Shown here one piece after another: positions 17,201 through 38,528 of a stretch of 60,258 bases of DNA. The notes under the pieces were generated by a model, which was not told where the DNA came from, did not search any database, and saw only the letters and a list, made by a program, of their open reading frames with translations. The stretch lies in IMG/VR virus record IMGVR_UViG_3300007514_000008, positions 1 to 60,258 of that record. One strand, 5' to 3'. Within the stretch, counting starts at the first letter, position 1. Every line of letters begins with the position of its first letter. The translations under genes and the position numbers were made by a program. The stretch is from a virus (lineage: Duplodnaviria; Caudoviricetes).

Positions 17201-20200
17201 CTTTAATCAATTAAGAAATAGAGATATGTATGATAGTCTTATTGACACAGAGACTGCAGTCGGTGTATCTCAAAGGTTTGCTAACGAAGGTCTCAATCCG
17301 TGGGCGATGCCAAATATAAGGTCTTGGCAAAATATTTTAAAGTCTCATTTTATAGACCCTATTGCTAATATAGAAACTAATGGTACTATTGCTACCTTAT
17401 CTCCAGATATGCAAGGTAGACTTCGTGGTACTATTATGGTGAAGGGTAATAACCGCTCAGAAATCTATAGAATGGGAGAGAGTTCTCTACCTCATGAGAG
17501 TAGGAATCAAAAGTTTAATCCATCAGAGACAATGATTATTGATGCCATTGGAACTGCTAAAGGTTCTGATAAAGGTCAAATGATTACTGCTAAGGAGTAT
17601 ATGGATAAGCATAACCTTAAGGCAGAGACTCTTGGTGAGTTATATGATGCTATTTCTGGTCCATCTACAACTGCTCCAAAGAAAGGTGGTCGTGTAGAGT
17701 TTACAACTGAGCTAGGTAGTACATATGTAGTAGACGGGACAACAACTAGAAGGACAAAAGTTCCCAAAACTGGTAAAGGACCGGGATTAAAAGAGAGGTC
17801 AACTGTTACTATGTATATGTCTGAAATGTCTGCCAAACAAGCATTTGGTCAACCATTTGGTGCTATGCAAGTATCTGGAGCAAAGAAAATTGAATTTGGT
17901 GAACTAGGTGTTACAATAAATGGTAAAACTTTTAGTGCGCAGAATAAACCTAAAAAGGGTTTACTCCCTGTTGAATTTATGCAGGGAGACACAGGGACAT
18001 CATATCATGTAGGTCATAAGATTATTAAGATAGGCACAGAACAAGTTGTTGTTCCAGCAAAACATAATAAGAGTATTCTAGTAGCTTGGGAAAGAAATCC
18101 TCATACCAAGCCAGATTCAGTTGTATTACTTAGACTTAAAGATTTTAAAGCCGCAGAAGATGGTGCTAATGGTCAAGTGTCATTTTCAGACGGAAGAAGA
18201 GGACTAGAATTTGACCATGATTTAGACACGGGTAATGCTAGATGGGATTTAGGTAGGAATGTAGCAGAGCATTATTTTAATCAAAGAGGGAGAGTTGCTG
18301 ATTCTCAAGCTAGAAAAGGTGTTACATCTGTAAATGAAAAGATGGATATATTTAAAGCAGAAGAACATCAGAATAGATTATCTCAAGAGCATCGAGGTGA
18401 CTTAATGAAGGGTATCGTTATGAAAACCCAGAGGGTCATCGACCATGTTAAGGATATGGTCAATAGAATTCCAAATGAAGATAAATTAATTCATTTAGGT
18501 GGAAACAGATATGCCAAGTTCAGAACAGATAGAGTTGCCATTGATGAGAAATTGCAACAGTTAGCAAACGATATACAGGGAGTCCTTGATTCAAAGAAAG
18601 GATATGACTCTGATTATTATGCTGATATGTATTCTACCGATATAGGAAATAAGTTTTTATTTGGACCAGACGGTTTATTTCAACCTTATGTGAAGAATAA
18701 AGTGGATGGTGGAATCGTAGTTGAACAATCTGGTCGTTTTACAGAAGTTGATTTAACTGCTTTAAGGGCAGGTATTATAGACCCAATAAATAGATTGGCA
18801 AGAATAACAAGTGCTGATTATTCTCAAACAGGAAAAAGAGAGCAGGTTAGCTTTGATGCTATGATGACTGCTATAGAATACTATAATGGTAACATGAGAT
18901 GGCAACATAAGGTCATACAGAAAGCATTAGAGAAGGCAGGTCTTGGTGGAACAAAGGAATGGTCTGGAGATGGTAAGGATTACGCGGCTAGATTTATGGA
19001 GAATGGCGAAAAAGCTAGTATGTTATTAAATCTGCGTGAAGGAGACTTGGGTTCTCATAGCGTTTTTGAGAGACAGATGTCTCTAATGTATGATTTAGGT
19101 AGGAAGGCAAGGATACGCCCACCTGCTAATAGAAATGAGCCAGAGTCTACCTTTATGAATGGTATTGAGAGCATGACACATAATAAGGATGTGTCTGGAT
19201 TTATGACTGAATACGGAAAATCTATTAAAGATACAGCTAGTAAACTTGGTGCTATAGATATGATAGAAAGAAAAATTAAAAGCACTCAGGAATTAGTCAG
19301 GGAATCATCTCTTCATAGTGATTTTAATGGTATGGACTATTTTAGGAACAGACTTGAAAGATTGAAGAGTGTCAAAAAAGGCATACAGGACAAATTAAAA
19401 TACAAGATTGATTCAGATGGTAATTCTATTAGAAAAGATAATGATGGACAATGGAAGACGCAGGGTAGTAGGGCTACTAATTTAGAAAAGGCTATGTGGA
19501 AAGCAGTTATTAGAGAAAAGAGGAGGGGATTATTAAATAGAGCTTTAAAAAAAGCAGATGGCAATAGGGAAAAGGAACTGGAAATCTTTGAGAAATTTGA
19601 AAAAGATAATAAAGATGATGCTCTTGTTATGAAAGAGCTTGAAAAGAATGGGATTGAATTTACTACTATGGGTACTAGAGAAATGATTTCAGCAGTTGCT
19701 ATGCAAAAGGCTTTTGGAACTTTATCTAATGTAGAAATGTTTATGGATGCTGGTTCAAATGTAAGGCAATTACATCATATGACTAGCTTTGTTAATCGTC
19801 AAGCCCGTGAAATGAGAGAATATATTGATTCACGATGGAATGATTTTAATAATAGTGACAAGCCTAATGAATTAGCTACTCAAGTTGCTAAGGACATACA
19901 AGCTTCTATGGAACAGAAATTCCTTACTATTTTTAATGAAAACCCAGATATGGCTAAATTATTTATCTTTAAGGTCATGACTCCTGAAATAAATTATGGT
20001 AAGTTAGTTAAAGCAGGTAATCGTATGATGTTTGCACCTAAAAATGCGAATCACCATAGGTTTGCTACCGCTGGATTTAAGTTCTTTAATGAAACCCAAC
20101 AAATACCTGAAGCTATGAAACAAGTTATATTTAAGGATATGACTGAAGTTATGAATAGTGCTTATAGGGAAATTATCCATCCAACCGAGACTAAATGGGA

Positions 20201-20777
20201 TTACGCTAATGGTGTAACTGATATTTTGGAGGTTTCATTTAATGGTAATGGAGAGCTTACTCATACATTAAGGAAAGGTCAGACTGCTGATGCTAAAATG
20301 GGTTCTATAGGTAAAGAATTGATTGAAGAAACTAATATATTCTATCAGTATGATAACCCACTTATGTATAATAGCACAGGTCTTGTTAGTGATGTTGTAA
20401 GAGAAGTTAATCCTAATCTTGGTAGTAGTAAGTGGGGAGCAGAGTATAGCCAATTAACTCAATATGAGATGATGAGAAAAGTATTTGGCACAGGGGGTAT
20501 ACGAGAAGCAATAAGTAAAAGAAGTATTCCATTCTTTCCAAGTGGAGCAATAGATAAAATGACAAAACATGGTCATGCTTATGGTATTGGTGGTATGGCA
20601 GACTATAGAAGGGCAATAGAGAGGGAGGCTACTGGGCTTTTAGGGGACTTACACGGAAAAGAAGGACTGTTAGGAGAGGGTAGTAATATGGATTTTAATA
20701 CAAATGTCATGCTTGGTAGACACAAGAAAGCAAGAGATGTTGTAAAAGAACAAATAGACAAACTATGTAATAAGTAG
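11232..20777 (+). CDS. Giant virion protein containing a single-chain two-barrel (DPBB) RNA polymerase
   Basis: Ordered motifs MDGF (16653), NKTAF (16782), SASK (16863), ERNPH (18090), catalytic-like DHDLD (18213-18227) and VLDSKKG (~18582) parallel those of QDE-1/RDR-type and crAss-like phage polymerases. Confidence 0.8.
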   Translation: MGLPLFGSTVQEKLRSTTQNVTTPTVSLGEFDFPTEHKWFDEMPEIPKTEALAGVPKPPQPRESGTANEFLGRLMWGALDSATFNALRWATDDKSKSLADTMMGEESGQTRAGMWGEGIGQAAGFLVPFGTFAKGGKVLVSSVGKYGSKNVAKKITDEIAEATAKKASVQFTTKSGSIMKGPKYTEELARDKFLKIMDKQYSGKKVMNHYADGMKSVAERNVFRERVTKNFAENLQEEMAKSGLRLDGATAKAIESTYAKFFTKAETMPVSSIAGAIQRFMAKRVPGLGWDSKLASAGSLMMEEAILFAGVESMFEGINASQNDREAHYGETISHAAKMGMMLGAVRLIPGGKKGYNKLGLAGPLSGAESGFGGFRKLILNREPYKNRINHTVEKLKGGGTKPTEDTQALFEVFNMIQQGGQTLKGSPVKDILMRSAKDNPWVKKGIFGGKSGKNSVSISNFDAGDIERILGQSGSGWRTIGGVRVNQKEVASQIMADGLDDVFRNFKTSWQKNFFKEYAEDFLRSSPRMVIGGITMAGGPGIVMDENIEFVDKVYHIALGGFMMKHGKQLKWYGKDGRAIEGSQFFGKAQPWGFHEKFKEQTAMMELLGGNPKDHYMWQSFKEQMEGKPLVSYLDSVIRSSKETKDILKVKDEFLRESKGKNIYFTEGTPKEIKDNSEIANNKENKDLYEIFVSHGANNFMPAESPKNGNVFSVKKWEHLTNREKKNFIKKMKEKNVKSSDDYLDIIIDSNIDVIHDIQNSIQGGLVSALQQKFKKGTRGEEDGAMWMASDTSDGKIRLPKIDAETTGSKKLSESELQSVVKYNQMVDFLHEAGRVEIFSKNAQDTGTKVNMDSPRLGEFLSSIESVHKTVQEKLGLGGSETHEIALNDPVFVTANRFFNTHNNIKTAESWIGKVMYDKNVGNRDITFEGDTKQEAKSLLRKIFYASGDGRTGRVSELDVVHDLIKVDKKTKQKDGDVQLSREQEFVDSLHEIIKFHGTSRLKSTGSKAKEFHYPEMKKDVRRLQELMQQDGITLFSHWNQGIRNEFVDNLKKATLKQKLQGQIRNSDGTVRDVEASDIDNIVKLMDSGLVNENLTLLNVKGIWGDVSGQHTESLINSWRAGKRGKPIQGVDNNVQLEFNKFLDDILLAEKADRRGRTDKQIKDEIQGIAWDTFKQYQEAVEPYVIKNIKDKNGDIRRSGILHLNKTQEVFMDRATLISINAQMHWANHNKKAGSVENFINDLRDASKSENIEMRNFATRLLRNFARSDADYTRALELANRYKLYDSGKRKFNEAKAKIDGTFVEPSERMKLFLTQVARPTYGSKKQVEANYDKWKDIETLENGNEGFHQENMSTISQKYNFFGHSFKDGSEIISYGEQSVVDQLHQIHDGYVKSNGTIDTDGFIRDLRKAAEKNGPKDRDGDKFSDKELSNLDSDLNKLRMDIVNSETIPLVTINTDRTNREGSHYHDLKNKVKTTPVTLGIRKILEGVEMPSNHMLGDFVMIERDIMTDGNKYKPISGDGVRADINKQLYDAERTSTTKDMKIVDESGVERPMTQEQPNRKVLYSFGSSKQSFGIVAERGSLNAMAGNYLSFLRGLKRFKGKEGEAELQAYLNETFGVHSNGINSRIKIVEKDGEVRIESTKEDGHINAESAQQAVKNMIDDRIFIDVVGADFYFNNIKTLDAKSQSTLNGRLSLFNNMNSNTLSKEILTDISKYQLDFAKKGDTQALSNAKALKDLADGKFEMKVFRDEFAPEQMKKEVHHMLNEQIKHYENELADPNLPKDLREGIIADRDVAKELLADKSGMDGFTLVNPRLFDALASIMGAGAGDHIGAIKPIMLRHGDQFFVNKTAFQKDATYSDFFKANENLGMVTFTSASKSLLPKNQAGESVYHPWFQDKIIEVNQSKSLMDYIADPAHAGKAIKIRPEDIQLMQVKGFKDKAKMAVNHALGMEGEARKDFIKKHLMGKWETNGEAILKLVNHEVDAIAFNQLRNRDMYDSLIDTETAVGVSQRFANEGLNPWAMPNIRSWQNILKSHFIDPIANIETNGTIATLSPDMQGRLRGTIMVKGNNRSEIYRMGESSLPHESRNQKFNPSETMIIDAIGTAKGSDKGQMITAKEYMDKHNLKAETLGELYDAISGPSTTAPKKGGRVEFTTELGSTYVVDGTTTRRTKVPKTGKGPGLKERSTVTMYMSEMSAKQAFGQPFGAMQVSGAKKIEFGELGVTINGKTFSAQNKPKKGLLPVEFMQGDTGTSYHVGHKIIKIGTEQVVVPAKHNKSILVAWERNPHTKPDSVVLLRLKDFKAAEDGANGQVSFSDGRRGLEFDHDLDTGNARWDLGRNVAEHYFNQRGRVADSQARKGVTSVNEKMDIFKAEEHQNRLSQEHRGDLMKGIVMKTQRVIDHVKDMVNRIPNEDKLIHLGGNRYAKFRTDRVAIDEKLQQLANDIQGVLDSKKGYDSDYYADMYSTDIGNKFLFGPDGLFQPYVKNKVDGGIVVEQSGRFTEVDLTALRAGIIDPINRLARITSADYSQTGKREQVSFDAMMTAIEYYNGNMRWQHKVIQKALEKAGLGGTKEWSGDGKDYAARFMENGEKASMLLNLREGDLGSHSVFERQMSLMYDLGRKARIRPPANRNEPESTFMNGIESMTHNKDVSGFMTEYGKSIKDTASKLGAIDMIERKIKSTQELVRESSLHSDFNGMDYFRNRLERLKSVKKGIQDKLKYKIDSDGNSIRKDNDGQWKTQGSRATNLEKAMWKAVIREKRRGLLNRALKKADGNREKELEIFEKFEKDNKDDALVMKELEKNGIEFTTMGTREMISAVAMQKAFGTLSNVEMFMDAGSNVRQLHHMTSFVNRQAREMREYIDSRWNDFNNSDKPNELATQVAKDIQASMEQKFLTIFNENPDMAKLFIFKVMTPEINYGKLVKAGNRMMFAPKNANHHRFATAGFKFFNETQQIPEAMKQVIFKDMTEVMNSAYREIIHPTETKWDYANGVTDILEVSFNGNGELTHTLRKGQTADAKMGSIGKELIEETNIFYQYDNPLMYNSTGLVSDVVREVNPNLGSSKWGAEYSQLTQYEMMRKVFGTGGIREAISKRSIPFFPSGAIDKMTKHGHAYGIGGMADYRRAIEREATGLLGDLHGKEGLLGEGSNMDFNTNVMLGRHKKARDVVKEQIDKLCNK

Positions 20778-28329: not shown

Positions 28330-28516
28330 TAGTTTCCTCCTTTTCTTTATCTAAACATTGTTGTTTTATTCTTTTTAAATCTTTTAACAATGACTCATAA
28401 GGCTTTTTCCATAATCCATTATCTTCTGTTGGTACTTGCGTTGTACAAGTCATTGTTAAACTGTTGATAAGTAATTCAAGTTCTTGTCTAGTGTATTTTA
28501 TTGTTACTGTAATCAT
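28262..28516 (-). CDS. Hypothetical protein
   Basis: Start refined to the ATG at 28516, which overlaps the upstream stop (ATGA). Confidence 0.5.
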   Translation of the reverse strand: MITVTIKYTRQELELLINSLTMTCTTQVPTEDNGLWKKPYESLLKDLKRIKQQCLDKEKEETNGKEETESYIRSQDPAYCETCE

Positions 28517-29109: not shown

Positions 29110-29177
29110 ATGGGGAGAAACCGGATGCGGATGTGTGGAAGGAGTTGCTTGTTCTTTAGAGGATAGCCTCTCCCCAT
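29110..29177 (-). other. Stem-closed element with anti-SD-like interior
   Basis: ATGGGGAGA (29110-18) and TCTCCCCAT (29169-77) form a perfect 9-bp stem; on the - strand the interior contains CUCCUUCC and repeated CAUCCG. Confidence 0.5.
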
Positions 29178-29188
29178 GAAAGAATTTA

Positions 29189-29226
29189 AGAAAAAGGAGA
29201 ACATCTTACAACATCCTCCTTTCTCT
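29189..29226 (-). terminator. Intrinsic terminator-like hairpin after the SSB gene
   Basis: - strand AGAGAAAGGAGG / UCUCCUUUUUCU, 12 bp with two G-U pairs. Confidence 0.6.
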
Positions 29227-29248
29227 ATCACTCTCTTACCAAATCGGG

Positions 29249-31533: not shown

Positions 31534-32285
31534 CTCGTTAAGCCCTCACATAAAACTCCTTGATATTCACAATATCTACATTCCCAATTTTCAAAAGGAA
31601 CACCAACATCACCAACTTCAAGGTCTTCAGGTTCATCTGCTTCATCAGAGATTTCTTGTAATTCAGTCCAATATTCAAATGCATCATCAATATAAGAATC
31701 TGGTATATACTCTTTCTTAATAGAACTAGTATCTTTATTATACCATAATAATCCAAGAGTACTATGTTTAACATCAAGTTCTTCCATCATACCCATACCA
31801 TAAGTAGATACTTGCATAGCATATCTTTTATCTAGTTTATTGATAGCACCTCTTCCATATTTCAACCTCCATTTATATGTTCCACAGGTTTTATAATCCC
31901 ATATCTCAAGATTAGAGATTTCATTTTCTTCATCCATATAAGTACATAAATCAAGATGACCAAGAACATTTAAATCTTTTAAAACAACTTTATGTTCTGT
32001 GATAACTTTAAGATTATTAAGCTCATCTAATTCAGCAACTGCTATATAATCTTTTACTGCTTGTTCTATATCATTATGTACTATAGTGCCAAGCCTAAGA
32101 AGTCTCATATTTCTAGGTTTTAATTCTGTCCTTGAGTCCCCTCGTGCTTTATGTAATTGCTTTCTATAACAACTCCCAGCAGATGATGCACTAAACCATC
32201 CTTTGTACTTTTCATACTTTTTACTGTTTAATTCTTGTTCTTTTTGCAGGTAAGTATGATATACCTGTTCAATATCAAAATTCAT
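31530..32285 (-). CDS. Cas4/AddB-like PD-(D/E)xK exonuclease with Fe-S cysteines
   Basis: SASSAGSCYRK, GTIVH, GHLDL, WDYKT, QVSTY, WECRYCEY...C. Confidence 0.88.
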   Translation of the reverse strand: MNFDIEQVYHTYLQKEQELNSKKYEKYKGWFSASSAGSCYRKQLHKARGDSRTELKPRNMRLLRLGTIVHNDIEQAVKDYIAVAELDELNNLKVITEHKVVLKDLNVLGHLDLCTYMDEENEISNLEIWDYKTCGTYKWRLKYGRGAINKLDKRYAMQVSTYGMGMMEELDVKHSTLGLLWYNKDTSSIKKEYIPDSYIDDAFEYWTELQEISDEADEPEDLEVGDVGVPFENWECRYCEYQGVLCEGLTR

Positions 32286-32309
32286 AAAATCTCCTTCAAC
32301 ACACCTCTA

Positions 32310-32338
32310 AAGTTAATAATATCAAGGGTTAAAGACAA
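32310..32338 (-). promoter_or_regulatory. Sigma70-like promoter for the recombination/replication genes
   Basis: - strand TTGTCT (32338-33), 17-bp spacer, TAACTT (32315-10), then SD AAGGAG and ATG. Confidence 0.55.
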
Positions 32339-32366
32339 GGGGAAAGTTGCCCATCCCCCTATCTTT
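32331..32366 (-). terminator. Terminator-like hairpin overlapping the -35 box
   Basis: AAAGAUAGGGGGA / UCCCCUUGUCUUU, 13 bp with two G-U pairs on the - strand. Confidence 0.6.
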
Positions 32367-32374
32367 GCGTACTC

Positions 32375-32590
32375 TCAAGGTATTAATCTATATTCGGCAT
32401 ATCTTTTTTTACCTTTACGGTTTTTATTGATAATTTTGTAACCTTCATCTCGTAAATCATGAATAATCGCAGCTAATCGCATACTTCTAATATTAGGATT
32501 GTTCATAGCATCAGCTGGGGTTAATGGTAGTCCACTTTTAAGATACCTTAATACTGCATCTTTTTGACTTTCTGTTCTTTTCTTTAGCAT
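32375..32590 (-). CDS. Helix-turn-helix protein
   Basis: SQKDAVLRYLKSG..LTPADA...RLAAIIHDLRDEGYKI...YAEYRL pattern. Confidence 0.8.
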   Translation of the reverse strand: MLKKRTESQKDAVLRYLKSGLPLTPADAMNNPNIRSMRLAAIIHDLRDEGYKIINKNRKGKKRYAEYRLIP

Positions 32591-33171
32591 ACCTGAAATC
32601 CTCCTGACTCTTCAATAAATTTTCTAAATTGAACTGCGACTTCAGCTTTGAATGGATAATTTGCCATAAAACTTTTTGTTGTACCCTTTCCTCTACATCC
32701 ATTACAAGTATAGTTAGGGTCTTCCTTTCTTGCTTCTCTTCCAAGTTTATCATTTCTCAATCCAGTTCCATCACAACAATGACAAGTTTCTTCAGGTAAT
32801 TGATTCATCCATTTTGTATGATTCTTTTCATATTCTTCATGATATTTATTTTTTTCAGCTTTTTTTAATTTTCTCACCATCTTCACAGCAGTAGTTTTAG
32901 GAACTGTATTCCCAGAATTGTCAGCACCTGCATCCATATGTTTAACTGTCATAACATCTTGACATACTTCACAAGTATATGCCCATAATGTTCTCCACCA
33001 CCATACGTTACTTCTCCAGTAATTACCCGGAACAGCTTTTTCATAAGCATCTAATTCAATCCAATATGCTTCCTTTGCTTCTTCAGATAAATCAGAGAAC
33101 CCTTCTGGGAAAATAGGTCTTTCTACATTAAGTTTGTTTATTGGGTTTAATCCATATACATCGAATCCCAT
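32584..33171 (-). CDS. Hypothetical protein with DnaJ-type Zn finger
   Basis: Two CxxCxGxG repeats (CHCCDGTG, CNGCRGKG). Confidence 0.7.
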   Translation of the reverse strand: MGFDVYGLNPINKLNVERPIFPEGFSDLSEEAKEAYWIELDAYEKAVPGNYWRSNVWWWRTLWAYTCEVCQDVMTVKHMDAGADNSGNTVPKTTAVKMVRKLKKAEKNKYHEEYEKNHTKWMNQLPEETCHCCDGTGLRNDKLGREARKEDPNYTCNGCRGKGTTKSFMANYPFKAEVAVQFRKFIEESGGFQVC

Positions 33172-33192
33172 GTTTAACTCCTTTATGTTAAA

Positions 33193-33237
33193 GGTAACGA
33201 CCCTACTAACTCAACAATCGAGGATTCAGGTCGCACC
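33193..33237 (-). other. Small stem-closed intergenic element
   Basis: GGT-aa-CGACC pairs with GGTCG-c-ACC. Confidence 0.35.
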
Positions 33238-33245
33238 AGCTTCAA

Positions 33246-33911
33246 TTAACTACCTACAGAAAACTCAGTAATAATTTGCTTTCTTTCATTAACACACTTA
33301 ACCAGTGTATCAACAGGAATGAAATTGGCTATTGCCGCTTTCACTCTAAAGCAATTTTCCACATTTAATAGGTAATAAGCTACTTTTCTCGCATGAGAAC
33401 TAGTCACTTTACCAGTATATGTTCTGTAGATTCCAATACACATTTGATACGTATTAGCAGAATGACCGTTATCCAGTATTCTCTTAAACATACCAGTAGC
33501 ATATTTCTTACCCAACCACTTCTCAAGGCATTTAATCCTATTGAGATGTGTTTTAGGTATTTCAGCACCTTTCATGTATCTCCATAAATATTGATGACCA
33601 TTTAATAACATGGTATCTTTATTCGATGAGATAAATAAGGCATCATACAGTTCCTCAGACGTACTATTGTGCTGAACAATAGATACTTTTACATCACTGT
33701 ATTTAATACCATCCGATTTCGCTATCTGTTGCAAAGCAGACTTTCGCCTATGACCATCAATAATAGTCATTTTATCAGCAACTACGATAGGTTGCAGTAA
33801 TCCATTCTTCCTTATATTTGTAGCTAAGGAACTAATCCCTTTATCCGTCCGTTGTGGGGGATTATATGGAGAACTGACTAATTCACTTAAAGCGCAGATT
33901 CTGTACTTCAT
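33246..33911 (-). CDS. ParB/Srx N-terminal domain protein
   Basis: SPYNP, LATNIRKNGLLQPIVV, IIDGHRR. Confidence 0.85.
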   Translation of the reverse strand: MKYRICALSELVSSPYNPPQRTDKGISSLATNIRKNGLLQPIVVADKMTIIDGHRRKSALQQIAKSDGIKYSDVKVSIVQHNSTSEELYDALFISSNKDTMLLNGHQYLWRYMKGAEIPKTHLNRIKCLEKWLGKKYATGMFKRILDNGHSANTYQMCIGIYRTYTGKVTSSHARKVAYYLLNVENCFRVKAAIANFIPVDTLVKCVNERKQIITEFSVGS

Positions 33912-33996
33912 AATGAACTCTCCTTCTGTTTATGGTTATGAAAATCTTTATGAGTAATATAAGATATATCTGATGATACTAATATATGATACTAAA

Positions 33997-34059
33997 GAGA
34001 GGATAAAAGGCTGAGTTTTATATGCAAGACCACAGGTACCATTGTCTGCTAAACCTCTC
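33997..34059 (-). ncRNA. Structured unit A (three-way junction, 63 nt)
   Basis: + strand: GAGAGG/CCTCTC closing stem, ATAAAA/TTTTAT hairpin, GC(A)AGAC/GTCTGC hairpin. Strand taken from flanking genes. Confidence 0.55.
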
Positions 34060-34064
34060 AAATA

Positions 34065-34152
34065 TGAACTATGTGTACACGAAAGGATATTTCAGCCCTT
34101 CCACCACTGCCTACCACTACTATGCTTAATGCATCCCCCTCTACATAGTTCA
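34065..34152 (-). ncRNA. Structured unit B (88 nt)
   Basis: Perfect 10-bp closing stem TGAACTATGT/ACATAGTTCA; internal AAGG/CCTT and ATGC/GCAT hairpins. Confidence 0.6.
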
Positions 34153-34156
34153 AAAA

Positions 34157-34231
34157 CGGGGTATACTGGTCCGTTGTTTGGAATCATCCAGTTTCTTGGT
34201 TGCCTATAGGACTAACACCTCGAATACCCCG
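34157..34231 (-). ncRNA. Structured unit C (three-way junction, 75 nt)
   Basis: 8-bp closing stem CGGGGTAT/ATACCCCG, adjacent ACTGG/CCAGT stem and a second hairpin around CCTATAGG. Confidence 0.6.
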
Positions 34232-34239
34232 AAATTTTA

Positions 34240-34384
34240 TGCGGGTGCAATCTCAGTTTTGCCAACCGCCACTTGCCAACCTTTGTGTTCTATTTCCATA
34301 TCGCACACCAATTCATCCAGCTTGGTTATGTATTCGCCTTACTGGTTTAATTGTCTTTAAGTTGTTTAGTTTATCACACCCGCA
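34240..34384 (-). ncRNA. Structured unit D (145 nt)
   Basis: 8-bp closing stem TGCGGGTG/CACCCGCA; internal TTGCCAACC twice and an ACCAA/TTGGT hairpin. Confidence 0.55.
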
Positions 34385-34417
34385 CACAGGAGATGATATA
34401 TGAATACCATCAATCCT

Positions 34418-34750
34418 TTAGTCAAATCCATATTCTTGTTGAATTTTTGATAAATGGTCGCCTTCTACAAGTTGGTCATAATTATATCCGTACATGACCT
34501 TTAATCTGTCGTATGCATCAGTATATTCATCGTGGTATCTCTCATCACCATTTGGCAGACCATCAAATTCTTCTATAATGTATTCATGAGCAAATATATT
34601 CCTAAGAACAGAAGTAAATTCTGTTGCACTAGGTTTGGCTTGTTGAGAGTTAAAATCAAACCAATTTTTTAATGTACGAGAAATATGTATCTCTCTTCCA
34701 TTCTTATTGACTTGATATTCAAATTGGTTAATTGGTTGATGTTTATCCAT
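34418..34750 (-). CDS. Hypothetical early protein
   Basis: SD AGGAG; 110 aa. Confidence 0.65.
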   Translation of the reverse strand: MDKHQPINQFEYQVNKNGREIHISRTLKNWFDFNSQQAKPSATEFTSVLRNIFAHEYIIEEFDGLPNGDERYHDEYTDAYDRLKVMYGYNYDQLVEGDHLSKIQQEYGFD

Positions 34751-34788
34751 AATATCTCCTGTATTTTATGATATGTGGTTTGGTTTAG

Positions 34789-35220
34789 TCAAGCAGTTAC
34801 TTCATGATACCCCCAGATACCTTTCCATTTAATTAACTTAGGCAATTTAACATAGCCGTCCATATTGGGTTTATCTTTGTATGACTCAAGCATATATTTT
34901 GATAAAATAATGCCTGCTTGTACTGGTGCTTTATTCACACCATGAGTCAAGGTAATGTGTAAAGGAATATCAGTATTACCATGTTGATACCTTAATGTTT
35001 GTTTCTTCAAGCCCTCTCCAAAGTAAGTATAACAAGAGAGTGCGTTCATATCTTCTGCACAACACATTCCATAGATATATACATCAGCAGGTTGCCCATC
35101 TTTAATACCAATGGGAAACTTTGATTTTTCCAAACTATAATCATATGTAACATGAAGTGGGGAAGTTTTAGCACTATCTGGGAAAAATATTCCTGTGTAA
35201 ATGACTTTATTTGCCATCAC
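34789..35220 (-). CDS. 2H phosphoesterase superfamily protein
   Basis: Two HxT motifs (PLHVTY, PLHITL) ~65 aa apart, followed by APVQAG, as in cyclic-phosphodiesterase domains; SD AGGAGG. Confidence 0.65.
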   Translation of the reverse strand: MMANKVIYTGIFFPDSAKTSPLHVTYDYSLEKSKFPIGIKDGQPADVYIYGMCCAEDMNALSCYTYFGEGLKKQTLRYQHGNTDIPLHITLTHGVNKAPVQAGIILSKYMLESYKDKPNMDGYVKLPKLIKWKGIWGYHEVTA

Positions 35221-35404
35221 GCACCTCCTTTGTCTTCTTTGATGACTTTTTAGGTAATGCTTTTAGTGTAAGAAACACTGGTTGAGGAGCAGTATATTTT
35301 TTCTTCTTTCCATCTTTCCATATCCATCCACGTTTACGAGACTTACTAATCTGTCTTGATGTAACGCCTTGTTCTCTTCCGAGTTCTTTATTTGTTTTGT
35401 TCAC
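35207..35404 (-). CDS. Small basic hypothetical protein
   Basis: K/R-rich 65 aa; GTG start with SD GGAGG. Confidence 0.55.
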   Translation of the reverse strand: MNKTNKELGREQGVTSRQISKSRKRGWIWKDGKKKKYTAPQPVFLTLKALPKKSSKKTKEVRDGK

Positions 35405-35579
35405 GTTTCCTCCAGTGGTTATAACACAATGTTGGTGGATAATCTTTCTGTATTGTTAATCTCGTCTTTATAAATTTTCCACATAAATCTCCATCTTTAT
35501 TAACAACCTGTCTACATTTATGAGATTTACTCACATCTGTGTAAGGATGCTCTCTTTTAAGTTTTTTAGTATTCGACAT
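35388..35579 (-). CDS. Small Cys-containing hypothetical protein
   Basis: SD AGGAG; C...C...C..H spacing. Confidence 0.55.
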   Translation of the reverse strand: MSNTKKLKREHPYTDVSKSHKCRQVVNKDGDLCGKFIKTRLTIQKDYPPTLCYNHWRKREQNK

Positions 35580-35606
35580 TATTGTCTCCTGTTTGTTTTA
35601 AAATTA

Positions 35607-36072
35607 GAGAGTTGCTCTGTCCCGCCTTTGGTTAGATTACTCTACTACAGAGCTTCATATCAATCAAGGATAGCCCAGTTAAGACATAACCTTGAGTACA
35701 TCTGGAATACAAAAGACATAGGTAATTAATCCACATCTTAGGCATCCCGTTTGCCGATGCCTGCAAGACACGATAATCTTACAGTAACCTCCCGTCTCTA
35801 ATTCACAATGTTCGCACACTGCTAGGTCTTTTTTTAGGATAGACCAAATTCTCCACCTTTCTCTGGTTACAGAGCTTGAATACCCATATATCTGATACTA
35901 TGTACCAGACCTGTCCTTTAGGGACTGCAAATTTGATATTCTATCCTACCACAGGATGAAAGTGTTTGCTTAATAGCCGAGAAGACCTAAGCGAGAATAC
36001 CCTAACTGTTCGTTATCTTTGTTTAACGGTTAGCTTGATAATCTGATAGTTACTTCAATCAAAGCAACTCTC
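35607..36072 (-). ncRNA. Large structured non-coding RNA candidate (~466 nt)
   Basis: Perfect 10-bp terminal stem 35607-16/36063-72 enclosing nested stems 35823-30/35982-89, 35835-43/35940-48, 35845-50/35930-35 and 35862-67/35904-09, plus hairpins 35664-95, 35740-62 and 36002-33. No credible ORF. Strand taken from context; G-U evidence is mixed. Confidence 0.75.
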
Positions 36073-36086
36073 AAGTTTGAAAATTT

Positions 36087-36159
36087 TGGGGAATGGATGA
36101 CATACCGGGCTAATTACCGTCATCATGCAATAGTAATACACCGAATTGCTCATTCCCCA
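36087..36159 (-). ncRNA. 73-nt three-way junction with complementary loops
   Basis: TGGGGAATG/CATTCCCCA (9 bp), GATGAC/GTCATC, GCAAT/ATTGC; loop segments ATTAC and GTAAT are complementary. Confidence 0.65.
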
Positions 36160-36168
36160 TTGTATCCA

Positions 36169-36270
36169 TTAATGGAACGGTGCCCCATCTAAAATGAACA
36201 TAATAACCATCAAGAAATACATAAGCACAACCAATATGATTGCGCCTAGTACTTCTTTCACCTTATCCAT
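36169..36270 (-). CDS. Small membrane protein (33 aa), absent from the ORF track
   Basis: MDKVKEVLGAIILVVLMYFLMVIMFILDGAPFH, overlapping the upstream stop. Confidence 0.5.
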   Translation of the reverse strand: MDKVKEVLGAIILVVLMYFLMVIMFILDGAPFH

Positions 36271-36490
36271 GAATCGTCACCCAATCACTTAACCAATCTC
36301 TGCACTTGCGGAGTCCAGATGGTCCAACGCCTTTATAACGCTTCAGGTCCAATGGATTAGTATTAGCGATTGCCCACCAACAAGCATTTATATCGCTGTG
36401 GTTCAATTCAATTTGATGATGTCTCTCAACCGCTTTAATGATAGCTGGAGAAACATATCGAGTGATGGTATCTTTCACGGGTTTATACAT
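36263..36490 (-). CDS. Hypothetical early protein with HhH-like motif
   Basis: DLKRYKGVGPSG; SD AGGAGG. Confidence 0.65.
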   Translation of the reverse strand: MYKPVKDTITRYVSPAIIKAVERHHQIELNHSDINACWWAIANTNPLDLKRYKGVGPSGLRKCRDWLSDWVTIHG

Positions 36491-36512
36491 GAAGACCTCC
36501 TGTTTATGGTTT

Positions 36513-36662
36513 TAGGGAACAGAGGGGATGGAACAGCCTAATCCACTCTTACCAGAACTAAATCTTCATCCACTTAATCAATATGTGGAGAGGTGTGATT
36601 AGCACTAATAGACTGAACTCATATGCCTCTGTATGTTATTGCCCATGTTATTGGGTTTCCTA
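36513..36662. ncRNA. Structured intergenic element (~150 nt)
   Basis: TAGGGAAC/GTTTCCTA, ACAGAGG/CCTCTGT, TCCAC/GTGGA and GCCCA/TGGGT stems. Confidence 0.45.
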
Positions 36663-36736
36663 TATATATATATGAGATAGTATGTACACATATATCCCAT
36701 TAATAATAAGGAATAAAAGATAAAAAGAATAAAAGC

Positions 36737-36759
36737 GGTGACAGTAGGACACTGCCACC
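36737..36759 (-). terminator. Intrinsic terminator after the first early gene
   Basis: - strand GGUGGCAGU-GUCCU-ACUGUCACC followed by GCUUUUAUUCUUUUU. Confidence 0.7.
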
Positions 36760-36765
36760 TAACTT

Positions 36766-37074
36766 CTACTTAACCTTAGCCTGCAATAGCTTTATCTCTT
36801 CCTGTAACTCAAGGATAGTAGGCTCATTGGAAGGTTTATCATCTTTCTTTATTTCATCTGTACCAGAGACAAGCATTTCTTTCATGATTTCAGTAAGCAT
36901 AGCTTTCATCTTGGATTTCTGGTCATCAGACGTATCAAGGTCACTTTGCAGTGCTTGAATAAAGTTTGATGTTTGTTGAGGGGATGCACCAAATCTACGT
37001 GTTTTACGCTCCCACGCTGCCATGTGTGCTTGGATAGTTAGAGCTTTCATGAGTTTATCTGTGTTTACACTCAT
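36766..37074 (-). CDS. First gene of the leftward early block, hypothetical
   Basis: SD AAGGAGG; 102 aa. Confidence 0.7.
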   Translation of the reverse strand: MSVNTDKLMKALTIQAHMAAWERKTRRFGASPQQTSNFIQALQSDLDTSDDQKSKMKAMLTEIMKEMLVSGTDEIKKDDKPSNEPTILELQEEIKLLQAKVK

Positions 37075-37204
37075 AGTTGTTATACCTCCTTTACAAGGTG
37101 TTTAGTATTGATTGACTTCTAACTTGATAAGTTATTATCAGAAACCTCATAAAGACCGGGGCGTGTGTATATATGGTTGTCTATCAAAATGCTATAAATT
37201 TTTG

Positions 37205-37233
37205 TTGTAAATAACCTGGGCAACCTCTACATT
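37205..37233 (+). promoter_or_regulatory. Sigma70-like promoter for the packaging/structural block
   Basis: TTGTAA, 17-bp spacer, TACATT, then SD AAGGAG before 37256. Confidence 0.55.
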
Positions 37234-37255
37234 CTTTTAAATAAAGGAGTTAATT

Positions 37256-37450
37256 ATGACTATTACATCAAAAGATTTATCTGGTCCAGAAGCTCATACA
37301 GGAGTGGCTAGAGATGAACACGATAAAAAGTTAAAAGAACTACAGGAACTTCAGGCAAAGATAGATAAATTAAAGCCTAAGTTTGAAGGTCCACATGACC
37401 CGGGTGACGAGGATGACTCTAAAAAGAAAAGTAAGCAAAAGAAAAAGTAA
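37256..37450 (+). CDS. Hypothetical protein
   Basis: SD AAGGAG; charged 64 aa. Confidence 0.6.
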   Translation: MTITSKDLSGPEAHTGVARDEHDKKLKELQELQAKIDKLKPKFEGPHDPGDEDDSKKKSKQKKK

Positions 37451-37514
37451 TAAAGTATTATATAATATATATAATATAATATATATATATGTAATAGGCT
37501 GTCGGTAGGTTCTT

Positions 37515-37763
37515 ATGGCAGTTAAAATAGAAGCGTTAAGTGATTTAAGCTTGGAGGAACAATCAGAAGTTCTAGAAAAAATGGCAGAATATTTTTTGGA
37601 TAGTAATAAGTGGAAAACTTTTAATAATGAATCCGAAAGCATGACAGTAGATATAGAAGTTGATGGCACTGTCTATAAAGTCCCTAAACCAGTAAATGAA
37701 CTACTAAATGCTATCTATAGGATGTATGAACGAGAAGTAATGCTTAGGGATAAAAAAGATTAA
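37515..37763 (+). CDS. Hypothetical protein
   Basis: ORF abutting the putative TerS gene. Confidence 0.55.
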   Translation: MAVKIEALSDLSLEEQSEVLEKMAEYFLDSNKWKTFNNESESMTVDIEVDGTVYKVPKPVNELLNAIYRMYEREVMLRDKKD

Positions 37764-38528
37764 ATGGAATACAGGGAGATAAAGAGGGTAAAACATTATG
37801 TATATGATGATATTGAAGAATTCCCACACAAGGATGTTGAACCTGTTAAAAATTGGAGAGAGGGTAAACAAGGTGACTGGGTTTACTCAGACGATAATAG
37901 GATAGTTCAATTACTTAAAGTAAGCGAAAAGCTGAAACATCCTCATGACCGACCAAACTATAGTCATAGTAAAGGTTATGTTAGGACTATCGTTGGCACT
38001 TTCCTACGAAATGATAAGACGCAAATGGATACCAACTTTGAAGAACATCCTAACAGGTATACTTTCTCGAAAAAAATTAAAAACACCAATTCACGAGTTA
38101 GAGAGAGAAAGAACGCAACGAATAAAGAAAAATTATTTGCAACAACTGTGGCGGTTGGAACTGACGCAGTTAAAGCATACATGGAAGCTTTTGAAGAAGA
38201 TAATAGGGATAAAGCTAGGAAAAAAGCCGTAGTCCTGTTAAAACAAAGGAGAGTTATGGAAGAGATACAGAAGAGTGTAAAGGATGTCGCAGAAAATCTA
38301 GGCATCAATCACGAATATGTACTTCGTTCTCTGAAGCACTTAGCTGATTTTAGTGAGGATGAGAATATATCTCTGCAATCACTAAAGGAATTAGGAAAAG
38401 CAGTAGGAACTTTAGGAGGTGGACCAAAAAGAATTGAAACCGGGGTGGTCGGTATGTTTCAAGGTTTTTCTCCTGAGCAGATACAGGGAGCAAGAAGAGA
38501 GCTTAAAGACACAAATGAGGTTGAATAA
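37764..38528 (+). CDS. Putative terminase small subunit
   Basis: HTH-like TNKEKLFA...AVKAYMEAF...AVVLLKQRRVMEEI followed by oligomerisation-type helices; upstream of TerL. Confidence 0.6.
   Translation: MEYREIKRVKHYVYDDIEEFPHKDVEPVKNWREGKQGDWVYSDDNRIVQLLKVSEKLKHPHDRPNYSHSKGYVRTIVGTFLRNDKTQMDTNFEEHPNRYTFSKKIKNTNSRVRERKNATNKEKLFATTVAVGTDAVKAYMEAFEEDNRDKARKKAVVLLKQRRVMEEIQKSVKDVAENLGINHEYVLRSLKHLADFSEDENISLQSLKELGKAVGTLGGGPKRIETGVVGMFQGFSPEQIQGARRELKDTNEVE

Follow-up and report, generated by a model that had tools for sequence, protein, structure and literature searches.

The early region of this genome contains non-coding gaps holding elements whose ends pair to form closing stems, which raises the question of whether the early transcript gives rise to stable RNAs. 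The window, by which we mean the whole stretch of 60,258 nucleotides analysed, is the complete 60-kb genome of an uncultured seawater phage. A preliminary description of it proposed that an early polycistronic transcript, possibly the product of an injected polymerase, is cut into several stable RNAs, and that a neighbouring 2H phosphoesterase acts on RNA ends or cyclic nucleotides. Among the flagged elements, that at 35607-36072, of 466 nt, is the only well-supported RNA. The small modules are a mixed set of an intrinsic terminator, a conserved leader motif, an overlooked 33-aa gene and tandem units.

Layout of the early region

The minus strand carries every gene across approximately 23.8-37.1 kb. 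The claimed non-coding gaps and stems were all present, the stems lying at or a few bases from where they had been placed, but their weight was uneven. The gaps held no open frame even with one stop codon read through, save for a single frame in gap B, in which TGA read-through left 122 of 168 codons open and which had no other support. The gaps and the elements within them are as follows.

33172-33245, non-coding gap
33912-34417, non-coding gap B
35580-36168, non-coding gap C
36491-36765, non-coding gap D
33193-33237, minus strand, 45-nt hairpin-in-hairpin, imperfect closing stem
33997-34059, minus strand, 63-nt unit, 6-bp closing stem
34065-34152, minus strand, 88-nt unit, 10-bp closing stem
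34157-34233, minus strand, 77-nt unit, 8-bp closing stem (34157-34231)
34240-34386, minus strand, 146-nt unit, 8-bp closing stem (34240-34384)
35607-36072, minus strand, highly structured non-coding RNA of 466 nt, 10-bp closing stem
36087-36159, minus strand, 73-nt Y-shaped unit, 9-bp closing stem
36513-36662, minus strand, 150-nt leader of a 75-aa gene, imperfect closing stem with an additional inner 7-bp stem
36737-36759, minus strand, intrinsic terminator with a 10-bp stem, 3-nt loop and U-rich tail

Comparable stem-closed units at 28384-28460 and 29110-29178 fall outside the range that was flagged. A 3181-aa ORF had no match to any Pfam or PHROG family.

A 466-nt RNA in gap C

Contigs from four seawater metatranscriptome runs, each of a different study, were mapped to 32000-38000; the runs were selected for sharing words with this stretch, and the comparison is one of RNA runs. 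The 466-nt element was covered by RNA contigs in four of the four runs, all inside 35607-36075: X1 (35717-36075), X9 (35624-36008), X12 (35607-35966) and X13 (four pieces inside 35615-36017). None of these contigs ran beyond 35607 or 36075, the two ends of the closing stem being 35607 and 36072; as assembled contigs, they do not reveal the strand, the true ends or the level of the RNA. Contig depth, which is unfit for ranking parts, was 125.9 for the element in X1 and 2.4, 2.7, 6.6 and 15.5 for four other phage contigs; in X9 it was 62.3 compared to 3 and 4.95 for other phage contigs. The element was the sole piece recovered from 32000-38000 in X12, and X1 had a further contig at 36404-36671, overlapping the leader of the 75-aa gene. 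That 35607-36072 acts as a discrete, stable and abundant RNA is supported.

The ends of the RNA are joined by a terminal stem of 10-13 bp, and the predicted fold has many helices, roughly 24 in an MFE model built from the single sequence rather than by comparison. The element folded with a z score of -4.23 on the minus strand (0 of 100 shuffles) compared to -2.47 on the plus strand, and gap C as a whole reached -5.79 (0 of 20 shuffles). An Rfam search returned no family match for the 466-nt RNA, and the ROOL and GOLLD models gave no match even at E values up to 10. Judged by its sequence, this is a new large non-coding RNA without a named Rfam family. The prospect that all the elements would match Rfam families or terminators was not borne out, the terminator of gap D being the single exception.

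The element is set within a series of genes sharing its orientation. Immediately upstream, the minus strand showed no sigma-70-like site, and no terminator-like site was found inside or after the element, which is not itself a terminator.

Conservation of the RNA and its syntenic counterpart

A homologue of 433 nt is present at the syntenic position of the closest sibling genome, L010 (3751-4183, minus strand), whose TerS-like protein is 82% identical. It is stem-closed across about 430 nt, folds with a z score of -3.40 and aligns with the window RNA by nhmmer at an E value of 1.1e-5, with 61.6% identity across 372 columns. In a flank-anchored alignment six of eight pairs of the outer closing stem were changed on both sides, yet all eight pair in both RNAs. 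The helix preceding the conserved GGCAUCGGCAA hairpin carried three double and two single compatible changes, and two other helices carried two and one double changes. On an alignment made from sequence only, 70 of the 103 MFE pairs of the window RNA could form in L010, compared to 35-44 when columns were slid by 1-3, and 12 double changes were counted, compared to 3-7 when slid; the other 33 pairs fail in L010. Conservation with L010, at 62% identity, extends past the closing stem to helices and unpaired blocks inside the element, although the two genomes cannot be aligned in the DNA of their other gaps.

A population variant in X13 differed at 12 positions in 132 nt. One pair (35892/35908) was changed in a compensatory way and two A-U pairs had become G-U, which can form on the minus strand only; several of the variant's changes disrupt low-probability pairs of the MFE model. 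Three pattern scans and 167 loci around related genes gave no further family members, and the covariation thus rests on two diverged members, that is, one pairwise comparison plus one microvariant. Within that scope the predicted structure of the 466-nt RNA is conserved in its L010 homologue, and the compensatory changes there answer the concern that homologues would show no covariation.

In a sister subclade the position of the 466-nt RNA is occupied by a different block of conserved non-coding sequence, about 870 nt long. Its 104 + 95 predicted pairs showed compensatory changes in 33 + 34, with 98% of cells paired. The 33 double changes compare with 11.9 ± 2.3 in shuffles (0 of 500) and with 1-5 when the alignment was slid. 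The substitution pattern indicates that this block is under strong structural selection in the sister clade.

A leader motif and an overlooked gene in and beside gap D

The terminator (36759-36737) opens gap D, after the first early gene (36766-37074). The module at 36513-36662 has its imperfect stem, but its folding z score on the minus strand was -0.78, and its 5' part is instead a motif conserved among the three closest relatives. This motif, AACATGGGCAWTAAC (36635-36652), is single-copy in the window, L010 and L011/L012; L001/L008 and L088, where this is also the case, duplicate the window and the L010 contig. As a stand-alone RNA, 36513-36662 is not convincing.

The stretch between 36159 and 36263 holds a small gene that the preliminary description overlooked.

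36169-36270, minus strand, gene for a 33-aa hydrophobic, membrane-type small protein

Besides its open frame, this gene has DNA homology to L089 (76% identity over 102 nt) and to L011/L012, and a conserved C-terminal peptide is found in the L012 sequence. In both L089 and L012 the AACATGGGCAWTAAC motif immediately precedes the small membrane-type gene, and 36270-36633 is therefore an insertion in the window.

Small stem-closed units compared with chance

The modules other than the 466-nt RNA might be inverted repeats that arose by chance in rapidly evolving, mosaic filler DNA, the residue of genes gained and lost in an accessory region, a reading that is possible though we doubt it. Perfect inverted repeats of at least 8 bp, 30-520 nt apart, were counted against 300 dinucleotide shuffles. 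Gap B had 3 stems compared to 1.76 expected (75 of 300 shuffles reach 3) and gap D had 0 compared to 0.70, and gap C had 6 compared to 2.96 (23 of 300), or 4 compared to 0.81 at 9 bp or more (4 of 300). Simple stem counting in gaps B and D thus gave the shuffle expectation and is not above chance. The folding z scores of gap B (-0.60) and gap D (-1.63) were likewise small.

Taken singly on the minus strand, three of the seven small modules reached a z score of about -2.6 or better and beat their shuffles, and the remaining four folded no better than shuffled sequence, so that the objection on folding holds for these four. The three are the 45-nt unit at the junction of the ParB-like gene with its neighbour (-2.99, 1 of 200), the 146-nt unit, which is the first of the gap B chain (-3.06, 1 of 200), and the 73-nt unit (-2.62, 1 of 200). 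The 88-nt and 77-nt units, in the same chain of three, scored -1.21 and -1.31. The 63-nt unit was the weakest (-0.18, 71 of 200 shuffles folding equally), and its closing stem is lost in the fold of the whole of gap B, in which the fold of the 146-nt unit is retained.

Several further observations fit an origin by chance. The units are unconserved even where the flanking genes of relatives have 85% DNA identity, and indels are seen among close relatives, e.g. 36270-36633 is missing from L089. Identical copies aside, the four units at 33997-34384 had no alignable homologue in 167 fetched loci and no RNA contig in the four runs; this holds for the 146-nt unit individually, and the 73-nt unit also had no RNA contig in any run. 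The missing contigs on small units prove nothing, because short RNAs are poorly retained in such libraries and contigs. As RNAs, then, the four gap B units have neither contigs nor homologues behind them, and one of the four beats shuffles.

Against chance stands the arrangement of the stems. Gap B has three stems of at least 8 bp chained head-to-tail with linkers of at most 12 nt, matched by 2 of 2000 shuffles, and the syntenic site in L010 has two tandem stem-closed units. This statistic was picked post hoc on gap B and then applied to 59 early-region gaps of relatives (23.7 kb, window excluded, some loci mutually related), which had 162 stems compared to 118.9 ± 12 and 20 adjacent module pairs compared to 7.0 ± 3.1, neither reached in 200 shuffles. 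Coding controls (22 kb) showed no such enrichment (97 stems compared to 99.6; 2 adjacent pairs compared to 3.7). The arrangement of stems exceeds chance, and the gap B tandem units are candidates for further RNAs or for cis-acting stability or insulator structures.

Cis-acting, tRNA-derived and DNA-level readings

The structures could also be cis-acting parts of the early mRNA, such as intercistronic stabilisers, insulators, leaky terminators or nuclease sites, in the manner of the RNase III hairpins among the T7 early genes, with the 466-nt species a functionless, long-lived by-product of decay or processing. The units are exactly intercistronic, on the sense strand and flanked by A/U-rich linkers; most of the small ones are marginally stable, and a true terminator opens one gap. 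Their sequences are replaced quickly, yet units of this architecture reappear at syntenic junctions: a different stem-closed unit stands in L010 at the spot of the 73-nt unit, and non-homologous ones stand in L002 and L003 at the junction of the 45-nt unit. Turnover of this kind fits a need for any stable stem. We nevertheless consider this account unlikely, since a domain of 466 nt and roughly 24 helices far exceeds the size any stabiliser needs, its internal helices and unpaired blocks are kept with L010 while other gaps are unalignable, and about 870 nt are under strong structural selection in the sister clade.

It is improbable that the small units of gap B, 36087-36159 and 33193-33237 are decayed or highly derived tRNA genes or tRNA-like structures, left over from a tRNA island beside a large phage RNA and possibly serving as RNase P/Z punctuation. 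In size (63-146 nt), terminal stems (7-10 bp), head-to-tail order and short linkers they resemble a tRNA array, but ARAGORN found no tRNA in the window, the Rfam tRNA model had no match at E values up to 10 in 32800-37300, and the units show no readable T-loop or D-arm. G-rich 5' arms were preferred 8 to 1 in the window but only 28 to 17 among relatives (p = 0.14). In L012 the position of the 73-nt unit is taken by a tRNA-like element that has a T-arm and an anticodon-type loop with CAU; it scored 17.7 bits with the Rfam tRNA model, below the cut-off of 29. Of 168 loci, 3 carried canonical tRNA genes on the early strand (L004, one of these, is DNA of the window itself), and tRNA islands often lie near ROOL and GOLLD, according to PMC12286853.

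Very improbable is a role of the inverted repeats as DNA (a replication origin, ParB-binding sites or miniature inverted-repeat mobile elements), suggested by the ParB-N-domain gene that adjoins gap B and by terminal inverted repeats with A/T-rich flanks: the repeats differ from unit to unit with no repeated copies in the genome, with arms 60-450 nt apart they do not resemble parS palindromes or iterons, the G-U pairs and one-sided changes fit one RNA strand better than the other, and the large element is abundant as RNA.

The 2H phosphoesterase

The 2H gene and two small neighbours are placed as follows.

34789-35220, minus strand, 2H phosphoesterase of 143 aa, CNPase / tRNA-ligase-CPDase type
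35207-35579, minus strand, two small genes (63 aa and 65 aa) that separate the 2H gene from the RNA, with Shine-Dalgarno sites upstream

The two small genes had no family match. The 2H protein matched no Pfam model, but its assignment to the 2H fold was right by motifs, AF2, Foldseek and profile search. Across 49 homologues only H23 and H88 are invariant, T25 and T90 being nearly so, and the AF2 model has a pLDDT of 94. The top PDB matches by Foldseek were all the CNPase catalytic domain (E 6e-4, TMq about 0.6), two unnamed viral proteins matched at E 1e-7, and 20 of 20 weak matches of a profile search against PDB were 2H enzymes. The protein shares two H-x-T motifs and its fold with CNPase and Trl1-CPDase. 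Like phage Acb1 it is a small phage-encoded 2H enzyme, but it fits the Acb1 models worse (E 0.11-0.39, TMq 0.34-0.45) than CNPase or Trl1 (E 6e-4). Motifs and modelled fold mark it as a real enzyme of the accessory region. The suggested functional tie to the RNAs was not supported: a 2H homologue occurred in 3 of 29 scanned early regions (the window, L010 and L012), compared to 24 of 29 with non-coding gaps of at least 250 nt, and co-occurrence across the clade is absent. The enzyme is probably a module independent of the RNAs.

Known systems and a proposed origin of the RNA

In the early region of T7, hairpins that lie between cistrons and are processed by RNase III set the ends of the pieces of a polycistronic RNA. 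The window's structures also lie between early cistrons, but each T7 site is one hairpin, about 50-60 nt long, that remains on the messages and not a free RNA of hundreds of nucleotides. The tRNA region of T4 yields small stable RNAs of unknown function, about 120-140 nt, which lie among true tRNA genes and are excised with tRNA-sized units from a polycistronic transcript by host nucleases; the main RNA of the window is 466 nt, without a true tRNA. Like ROOL and GOLLD, two large 'ornate' RNAs, the window RNA is large, many-helixed and phage-encoded. It is abundant in RNA data, and relatives carry tRNA genes or a tRNA-like element in this early region. According to PMC12286853, ROOL and GOLLD are phage- or prophage-encoded RNAs of several hundred nucleotides with many helices and unknown function, often beside tRNA genes, and GOLLD expression increases in lysis. 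The window differs in having no tRNA gene and in placing its RNA inside the early operon of a lytic-type genome, and the known members of the 466-nt RNA family so far come from two sibling phages only.

The proposal of several stable RNAs is thus supported for one element, 35607-36072, by its contigs, conserved structure and lack of an Rfam match. We consider it on balance probable that the leftward early operon yields at least one stable non-coding RNA of approximately 466 nt, processed from the early transcript and possibly acting in trans. The polycistronic transcript would begin past the terminator at 36737-36759, host endonucleases would cleave the A/U-rich linkers flanking the element, and exonucleases would then trim to the closing stem, the compact fold shielding the RNA so that it accumulates. 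The 73-nt unit, 14 nt upstream of the 466-nt RNA, is a candidate processing or end-defining element and probably marks the 5' processing site of that RNA. Tentatively, the RNA may serve as a trans-acting protein- or RNA-binding scaffold or decoy in host takeover or counter-defence, or might, as other large phage RNAs do, assemble with itself.

The early block and its relatives

The phage genome, 60,258 bp long and bearing direct terminal repeats, is complete. A rightward structural block carries the following genes.

37764, TerS-like gene
40160, TerL
42304, portal
45472, major head protein

The leftward block, from ~37.1 kb down to 23.6 kb, encodes a DnaB-like helicase, a Dam-type methylase, a Sak annealing protein, a PD-(D/E)XK nuclease, a ParB-N-domain protein and many small ORFs. 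Since the region under study is the promoter-proximal part of this leftward operon, any RNA made from it is minus strand. In the phage GenBank collection, 33000-37200 had no DNA match and the TerS-like protein had no counterpart, and TerL was less than 25% identical to that of cultured phages; judged by these comparisons, the phage is without a close cultured relative. IMG/VR yielded 115 uncultured relatives of the TerS-like protein and the metagenome contigs 162, and 80 loci were kept from each set. The sole non-coding stretch conserved widely in the clade was the divergent early/late intergenic region at 37075-37255 (blastn matches in ~40 loci, 66-89% identity), probably a shared promoter or control region. 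Outside the early block, ORFs of 3181 aa (11232-20777) and 1713 aa (1597-6738) were without Pfam or PHROG match, and so no family match supports the larger one as a virion RNA polymerase.

A well-supported 466-nt RNA in the early block

A preliminary description of this region had proposed that stem-closed elements in the early gaps give rise to stable structured RNAs. For the largest of them, this proposal was supported by folding, by base pairs kept in a homologue and by RNA contigs in all four of the runs mapped.

35607-36072, minus strand, 466-nt element (closing stem arms at 35607-35616 and 36063-36072)

The minus strand of the element folded at -140.8 kcal/mol compared to -116.6 ± 5.7 in shuffles (z -4.23, 0/100), and the plus strand gave a z of -2.47. 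Parts of 33100-37300 were found in 14 RNA-labelled runs from five studies, all with seawater or marine labels and none containing more than 0.23 of the sampled words of that stretch. The contigs of one metatranscriptome run from each of four studies were mapped on 32000-38000, and the element was covered in every run.

Contigs on the 466-nt element in four seawater RNA runs
X1, 35717-36075
X9, 35624-36008
X12, 35607-35966
X13, four pieces within 35615-36017

None of these contigs crossed 35607 or 36075 in any of the four runs, and contigs of this kind reveal neither strand nor exact ends. Contig depth on the element was 125.9 in X1, compared to 2.4, 2.7, 6.6 and 15.5 for other parts of the phage, and 62.3 in X9, compared to 3 and 4.95; these depths are not suited to ranking the parts, and the runs were selected because they contain query words. 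A 10- to 50-fold step in depth inside one 6-kb stretch nevertheless cannot be explained by uniform DNA carry-over. Pattern scans of IMG/VR found no other contig carrying the element that could add to its depth. We regard the 466-nt element as a genuine RNA.

A homologue in the closest sibling phage

When the gaps were compared with all of the relatives' loci by blastn, nothing was alignable save identical copies of the same DNA. The closest sibling genome, L010 (a 60,294-bp contig with a TerS-like protein 82% identical), was reached through a shared 11-mer. At the same position it carries a 433-nt stretch whose outer helix closes ~430 nt, following a small membrane-type gene and a ~66-nt stem-closed unit and preceding the next Shine-Dalgarno site. 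The two elements matched by nhmmer (E 1.1e-5, 61.6% identity over 372 columns), and the L010 element folded with a z of -3.40 (0/100 shuffles). The flanks were conserved: AAACUU precedes the stem, CUUUGA follows its 5' arm and UUUUAAA its 3' arm. With the closing stem aligned on these flanks, six of the eight outer pairs differed on both sides and all eight paired in both RNAs. Similar changes were seen inside: three double and two single compatible changes in a 9-10 bp helix before an invariant GGCAUCGGCAA hairpin, two double changes in a helix reading UCAAGG/CCUUGA in one RNA and UUAUGG/CCAUAA in the other, and one double change in the hairpin GCUCUG/UAGAGU.

A blind test, in which the minimum-free-energy pairs of our phage were read on L010 through the sequence-only nhmmer alignment, gave the same picture. 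Seventy of the 103 pairs held, compared to 35-44 with the partners slid by 1-3 columns, and 12 double changes were counted as against 3-7. In a population variant from X13, one pair had changed in a compensatory way and two A-U pairs had become G-U, a change that keeps pairing on the minus strand only; three further changes break pairs already of low probability. Drawn from two species and one variant, the comparative support for the 466-nt RNA is real but thin; the smaller units have no homologues. A third family member was not found by nhmmer over 167 loci of relatives; a 20-mer and a three-anchor pattern retrieved from IMG/VR only a near-identical fragment of the same phage and the L010 contig, and the three-anchor pattern was found in none of the metagenome contigs. 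The nearest new relative, L089, ends 92 nt short of the expected position of the RNA.

Comparison with known RNAs

The preliminary description recognized no named family among the elements, and Rfam agreed. Rfam 15 gave no match to the whole genome at gathering thresholds, and a search of 32800-37300 at E up to 10 returned only two chance-level matches (a vertebrate lncRNA and REN-SRE). Twelve related loci gave a single match, a tRNA in L045, and L012, a near relative, gave only a sub-threshold tRNA-like match at E up to 10.

The nearest known kind is that of ROOL and GOLLD, large phage/prophage RNAs of unknown function, often near tRNA islands (PMC12286853). The 466-nt RNA lies in a phage genome in which neither ARAGORN nor the Rfam tRNA model found a tRNA gene, but related loci have a tRNA-like element or, in a few cases, tRNA genes (see below). 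Because neither the ROOL nor the GOLLD model matched, the element is assigned to neither family, and a new family of the same general kind describes it best. A retron ncRNA was considered for its terminal stem but rejected, as a reverse transcriptase was absent among the 38 proteins scanned (Pfam and/or PHROGs). A description of the 466-nt RNA was not found in titles and abstract openings, a thin basis for calling it new, and a prior description may exist.

A second large RNA in sister phages

At the equivalent early position of a sister subclade lies a conserved non-coding block.

L013:1751-2622, minus strand, conserved non-coding block of ~870 nt

The block was carried by L013, L015, L016, L018 and L020-L024 and, more distantly, by L030 and L032. 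In its first 380 nt, 33 of the 104 predicted pairs had compensatory changes and 98% of cells were paired; the 33 double changes compare to 11.9 ± 2.3 in shuffles (0/500) and to 1-5 when the partners were slid. Compensatory changes were present in 34 of the 95 pairs of the remaining ~500 nt. Rfam gave no match. An nhmmer profile of the first 380 nt found nothing in our phage, and on this sequence comparison the block was not placed in one family with the 466-nt RNA. Its covariation is very strong, and the ~870-nt block probably represents a separate, new giant RNA of phages. The presence of a 466-nt RNA in one lineage and a ~870-nt RNA in the sister subclade makes large structured early-region RNAs a property of the clade, with different lineages carrying different ones.

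Genes for tRNA were rare in the early region (3 of 168 loci, one of which is the DNA of our own phage). Two non-coding units were observed in L012.

L012:3185-3275, minus strand, tRNA-like element
L012:2540-2880, minus strand, non-coding unit of ~330 nt

The first has a CAU anticodon-type loop, a T-arm and oversized D and variable regions; it scored 17.7 bits with the Rfam tRNA model against a cut-off of 29, was not called by ARAGORN, and occupies the position of a 73-nt stem-closed unit (36087-36159) in our phage. The second lies between two hairpins that resemble intrinsic terminators by eye, upstream of an arginine-rich small ORF and a 2H phosphoesterase gene, and looks like an independent ncRNA gene.

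Small stem-closed units

Seven smaller units had been listed alongside the 466-nt element.

33193-33237, small unit
33997-34059, small unit in gap B (33912-34417)
34065-34152, small unit in gap B
34157-34233, small unit in gap B
34240-34386, small unit in gap B
36087-36159, 73-nt unit in gap C (35580-36262)
36513-36662, small unit in gap D (36491-36765)

The gaps and closing stems were found at the places given for them, so that the positions of the modules stand, but for most of the small units taken singly an excess over chance does not, and long-range stems chosen by eye are a weak criterion. Inverted repeats were counted with arms of at least 8 bp and a spacing of 30-520 nt and compared to dinucleotide shuffles. 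Their number in gaps B and D was that expected, and among the three gaps only gap C showed an excess, with four repeats of at least 9 bp against 0.81 expected (reached in 4 of 300 shuffles). Folding against dinucleotide shuffles, clear for the 466-nt element, was mixed for the small units: three of seven had a z of about -2.6 or better and four were no better than shuffles. Whole-gap values were -0.60 for B, -1.63 for D and -5.79 for C. RNA contigs over 33997-34386 or 36087-36159 were found in none of the four runs, which is no evidence of absence.

Gap B did exceed chance in its arrangement. Each of its three stems of at least 8 bp encloses one unit, and the units follow one another without overlap, joined by linkers of 4 and 8 nt; such a chain arose in only 2 of 2000 shuffles, by a statistic picked after the data were seen. 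The same measures were then run on 59 early-region gaps of relatives (23.7 kb, our phage excluded). Long-range stems numbered 162 against 118.9 ± 12 expected and head-to-tail pairs 20 against 7.0 ± 3.1 (0/200 shuffles each), in a sample whose effective size is smaller than nominal, as several loci are mutually related. Coding controls gave 97 stems against 99.6 and 2 head-to-tail pairs against 3.7. By eye, the syntenic junctions of L002, L003 and L010 had a like architecture with unrelated sequences, and so did 28384-28460 and 29110-29178 in the early block of our phage. Sense-strand folding of six gaps of relatives gave z values of -3.07, -0.56, -2.13, -4.84, -1.50 and -4.37, and other gaps of the early block of our phage also had stem-closed or long-hairpin structures.

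Stem-closed or long-hairpin structures in other gaps of the early block
28384-28460, closing stem of 17 bp, z -2.84
29110-29248, 17-bp hairpin and a 13-bp-closed unit, z -3.51
32286-32374, 13-bp hairpin, z -2.29

Alternative genetic codes gave no convincing open frame in the gaps. Readings of the repeats as a replication origin/parS or as MITEs were tried and rejected. A stem polarity, with the G-rich arm 5', was 8 to 1 in our phage but 28 to 17 in the relatives (p 0.14) and was dropped. The gap B units, individually indistinguishable from chance, may be further RNAs or cis-acting structures; the 73-nt unit at 36087-36159 probably helps to define the 5' end of the 466-nt RNA.

A small gene, a terminator and turnover of the early region

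Three points of the earlier reading call for correction. The stretch at 36169-36270 is a real gene of 33 aa, of membrane type. The start of gap D is an intrinsic terminator, with a G+C-rich hairpin followed by a U tract at 36737-36759. In the module at 36513-36662, the 5' part is a motif that the three nearest relatives share.

Positions of the single-copy motif AACATGGGCAWTAAC
36635-36652, our phage
L010:4811-4825, closest sibling phage
L012:3441-3455, near relative

The motif stands a short way behind a TATATATAG run, with the first early terminator upstream of it, and may be a promoter-proximal or leader signal. In two of the three nearest relatives it directly precedes the small gene, which indicates that the rest of the 36513-36662 module, together with a 75-aa gene, is an insertion in our phage. 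Alignment of 36270-36633 with L089:194-222, from a relative with 89% identity in the TerS-like protein, places this insertion at ~364 nt, holding the 75-aa gene and most of the gap D leader. Around ParB-like genes that are 85% identical in DNA, the flanks are unalignable. As judged from these alignments, the early region shows mosaic turnover.

The 2H phosphoesterase gene

The preliminary description had called the protein encoded at 34789-35220 a 2H phosphoesterase and had suggested that it acts on RNA ends or cyclic nucleotides. Sequence-only searches (Pfam, PHROGs, phmmer against the PDB, and a six-sequence profile) gave nothing, and an AF2 model from six sequences (pLDDT 51) was set aside. 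HMMER searches of 1.84 billion proteins found 57 representatives at E up to 1e-3, a small family without a Pfam model. In an alignment of 49 sequences, H23 and H88 were the sole invariant residues and T25 and T90 were at least 90% conserved, forming two H-x-T/S motifs. All 20 weak matches of the profile in the PDB were 2H enzymes. The AF2 model of the protein (pLDDT 94, pTM 0.87) found, among the Foldseek PDB matches listed, CNPase catalytic domains, then Trl1 and RICH. The nearest viral models were two unnamed proteins and an RNA-ligase fusion; Acb1 models in BFVD were far weaker (ranks 14, 28 and 37, E 0.11-0.39), and Acb1 gave no sequence match. The motifs and the predicted fold agree, and on that model the 2H call is correct. 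The nearest relatives have 2',3'-cyclic phosphate ends as their substrates. Among the 38 proteins scanned, neither an RNA ligase nor a kinase was found.

A partnership with the RNAs did not fare as well. Of 29 early regions, three had a 2H homologue no more than 6 kb from the TerS-like gene, compared to 24 with gaps of at least 250 nt, so that a required enzyme-RNA partnership is unsupported. The three 2H-bearing regions belong to our phage or its nearest relatives, and in each the gene comes shortly after a large non-coding block.

Proposed origin and possible role of the 466-nt RNA

The 466-nt RNA lies inside a co-oriented operon, and promoter-like or terminator-like sites of its own were not found. 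It is flanked by A/U-rich linkers, its closing stem is under selection, and in the RNA contigs it stands as a piece apart, far deeper than the rest. Transcription would restart after the terminator at 36737-36759, host endonucleases would cut the A/U-rich linkers, exonucleases would halt at the closing stem, and the compact 466-nt RNA would outlive the messages. Given how large the RNA is, that it has conserved unpaired blocks and that it lies amid accessory early genes, we favor, with modest confidence, a trans-acting role as scaffold, decoy or self-assembling RNA rather than that of a simple stabilizer of messenger.

A wider reading, which we consider rather unlikely, is that the early region of the clade serves as an RNA toolbox. 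Lineage-specific, fast-evolving, stem-closed RNAs (the 466-nt RNA, the ~870-nt RNA and tRNA-like or tRNA-sized units) would be punched out of the early transcript at A/U-rich linkers and would act in trans against the host: as decoys for RNA-targeting defenses or tRNA nucleases, by soaking up host proteins as sponges, or as self-assembling particles like the ROOL and GOLLD cages. If this were true, the 466-nt RNA would be the first of its sort for which there is direct evidence that it is very abundant in the open ocean.

GOLLD, ROOL and other large structured phage RNAs are among the least understood classes of RNA, and few families are known. The present work supplies a new RNA family with exact coordinates and a homologue that marks the helices under selection; in seawater RNA data from four studies this RNA is set apart from the messages of the phage itself, and sister phages carry a second, larger covarying RNA at that genomic position. 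These results raise the question of what role abundant phage RNAs play during infection in the sea, and whether the early accessory region, usually mined for anti-defense proteins, may also be a reservoir of RNA functions.
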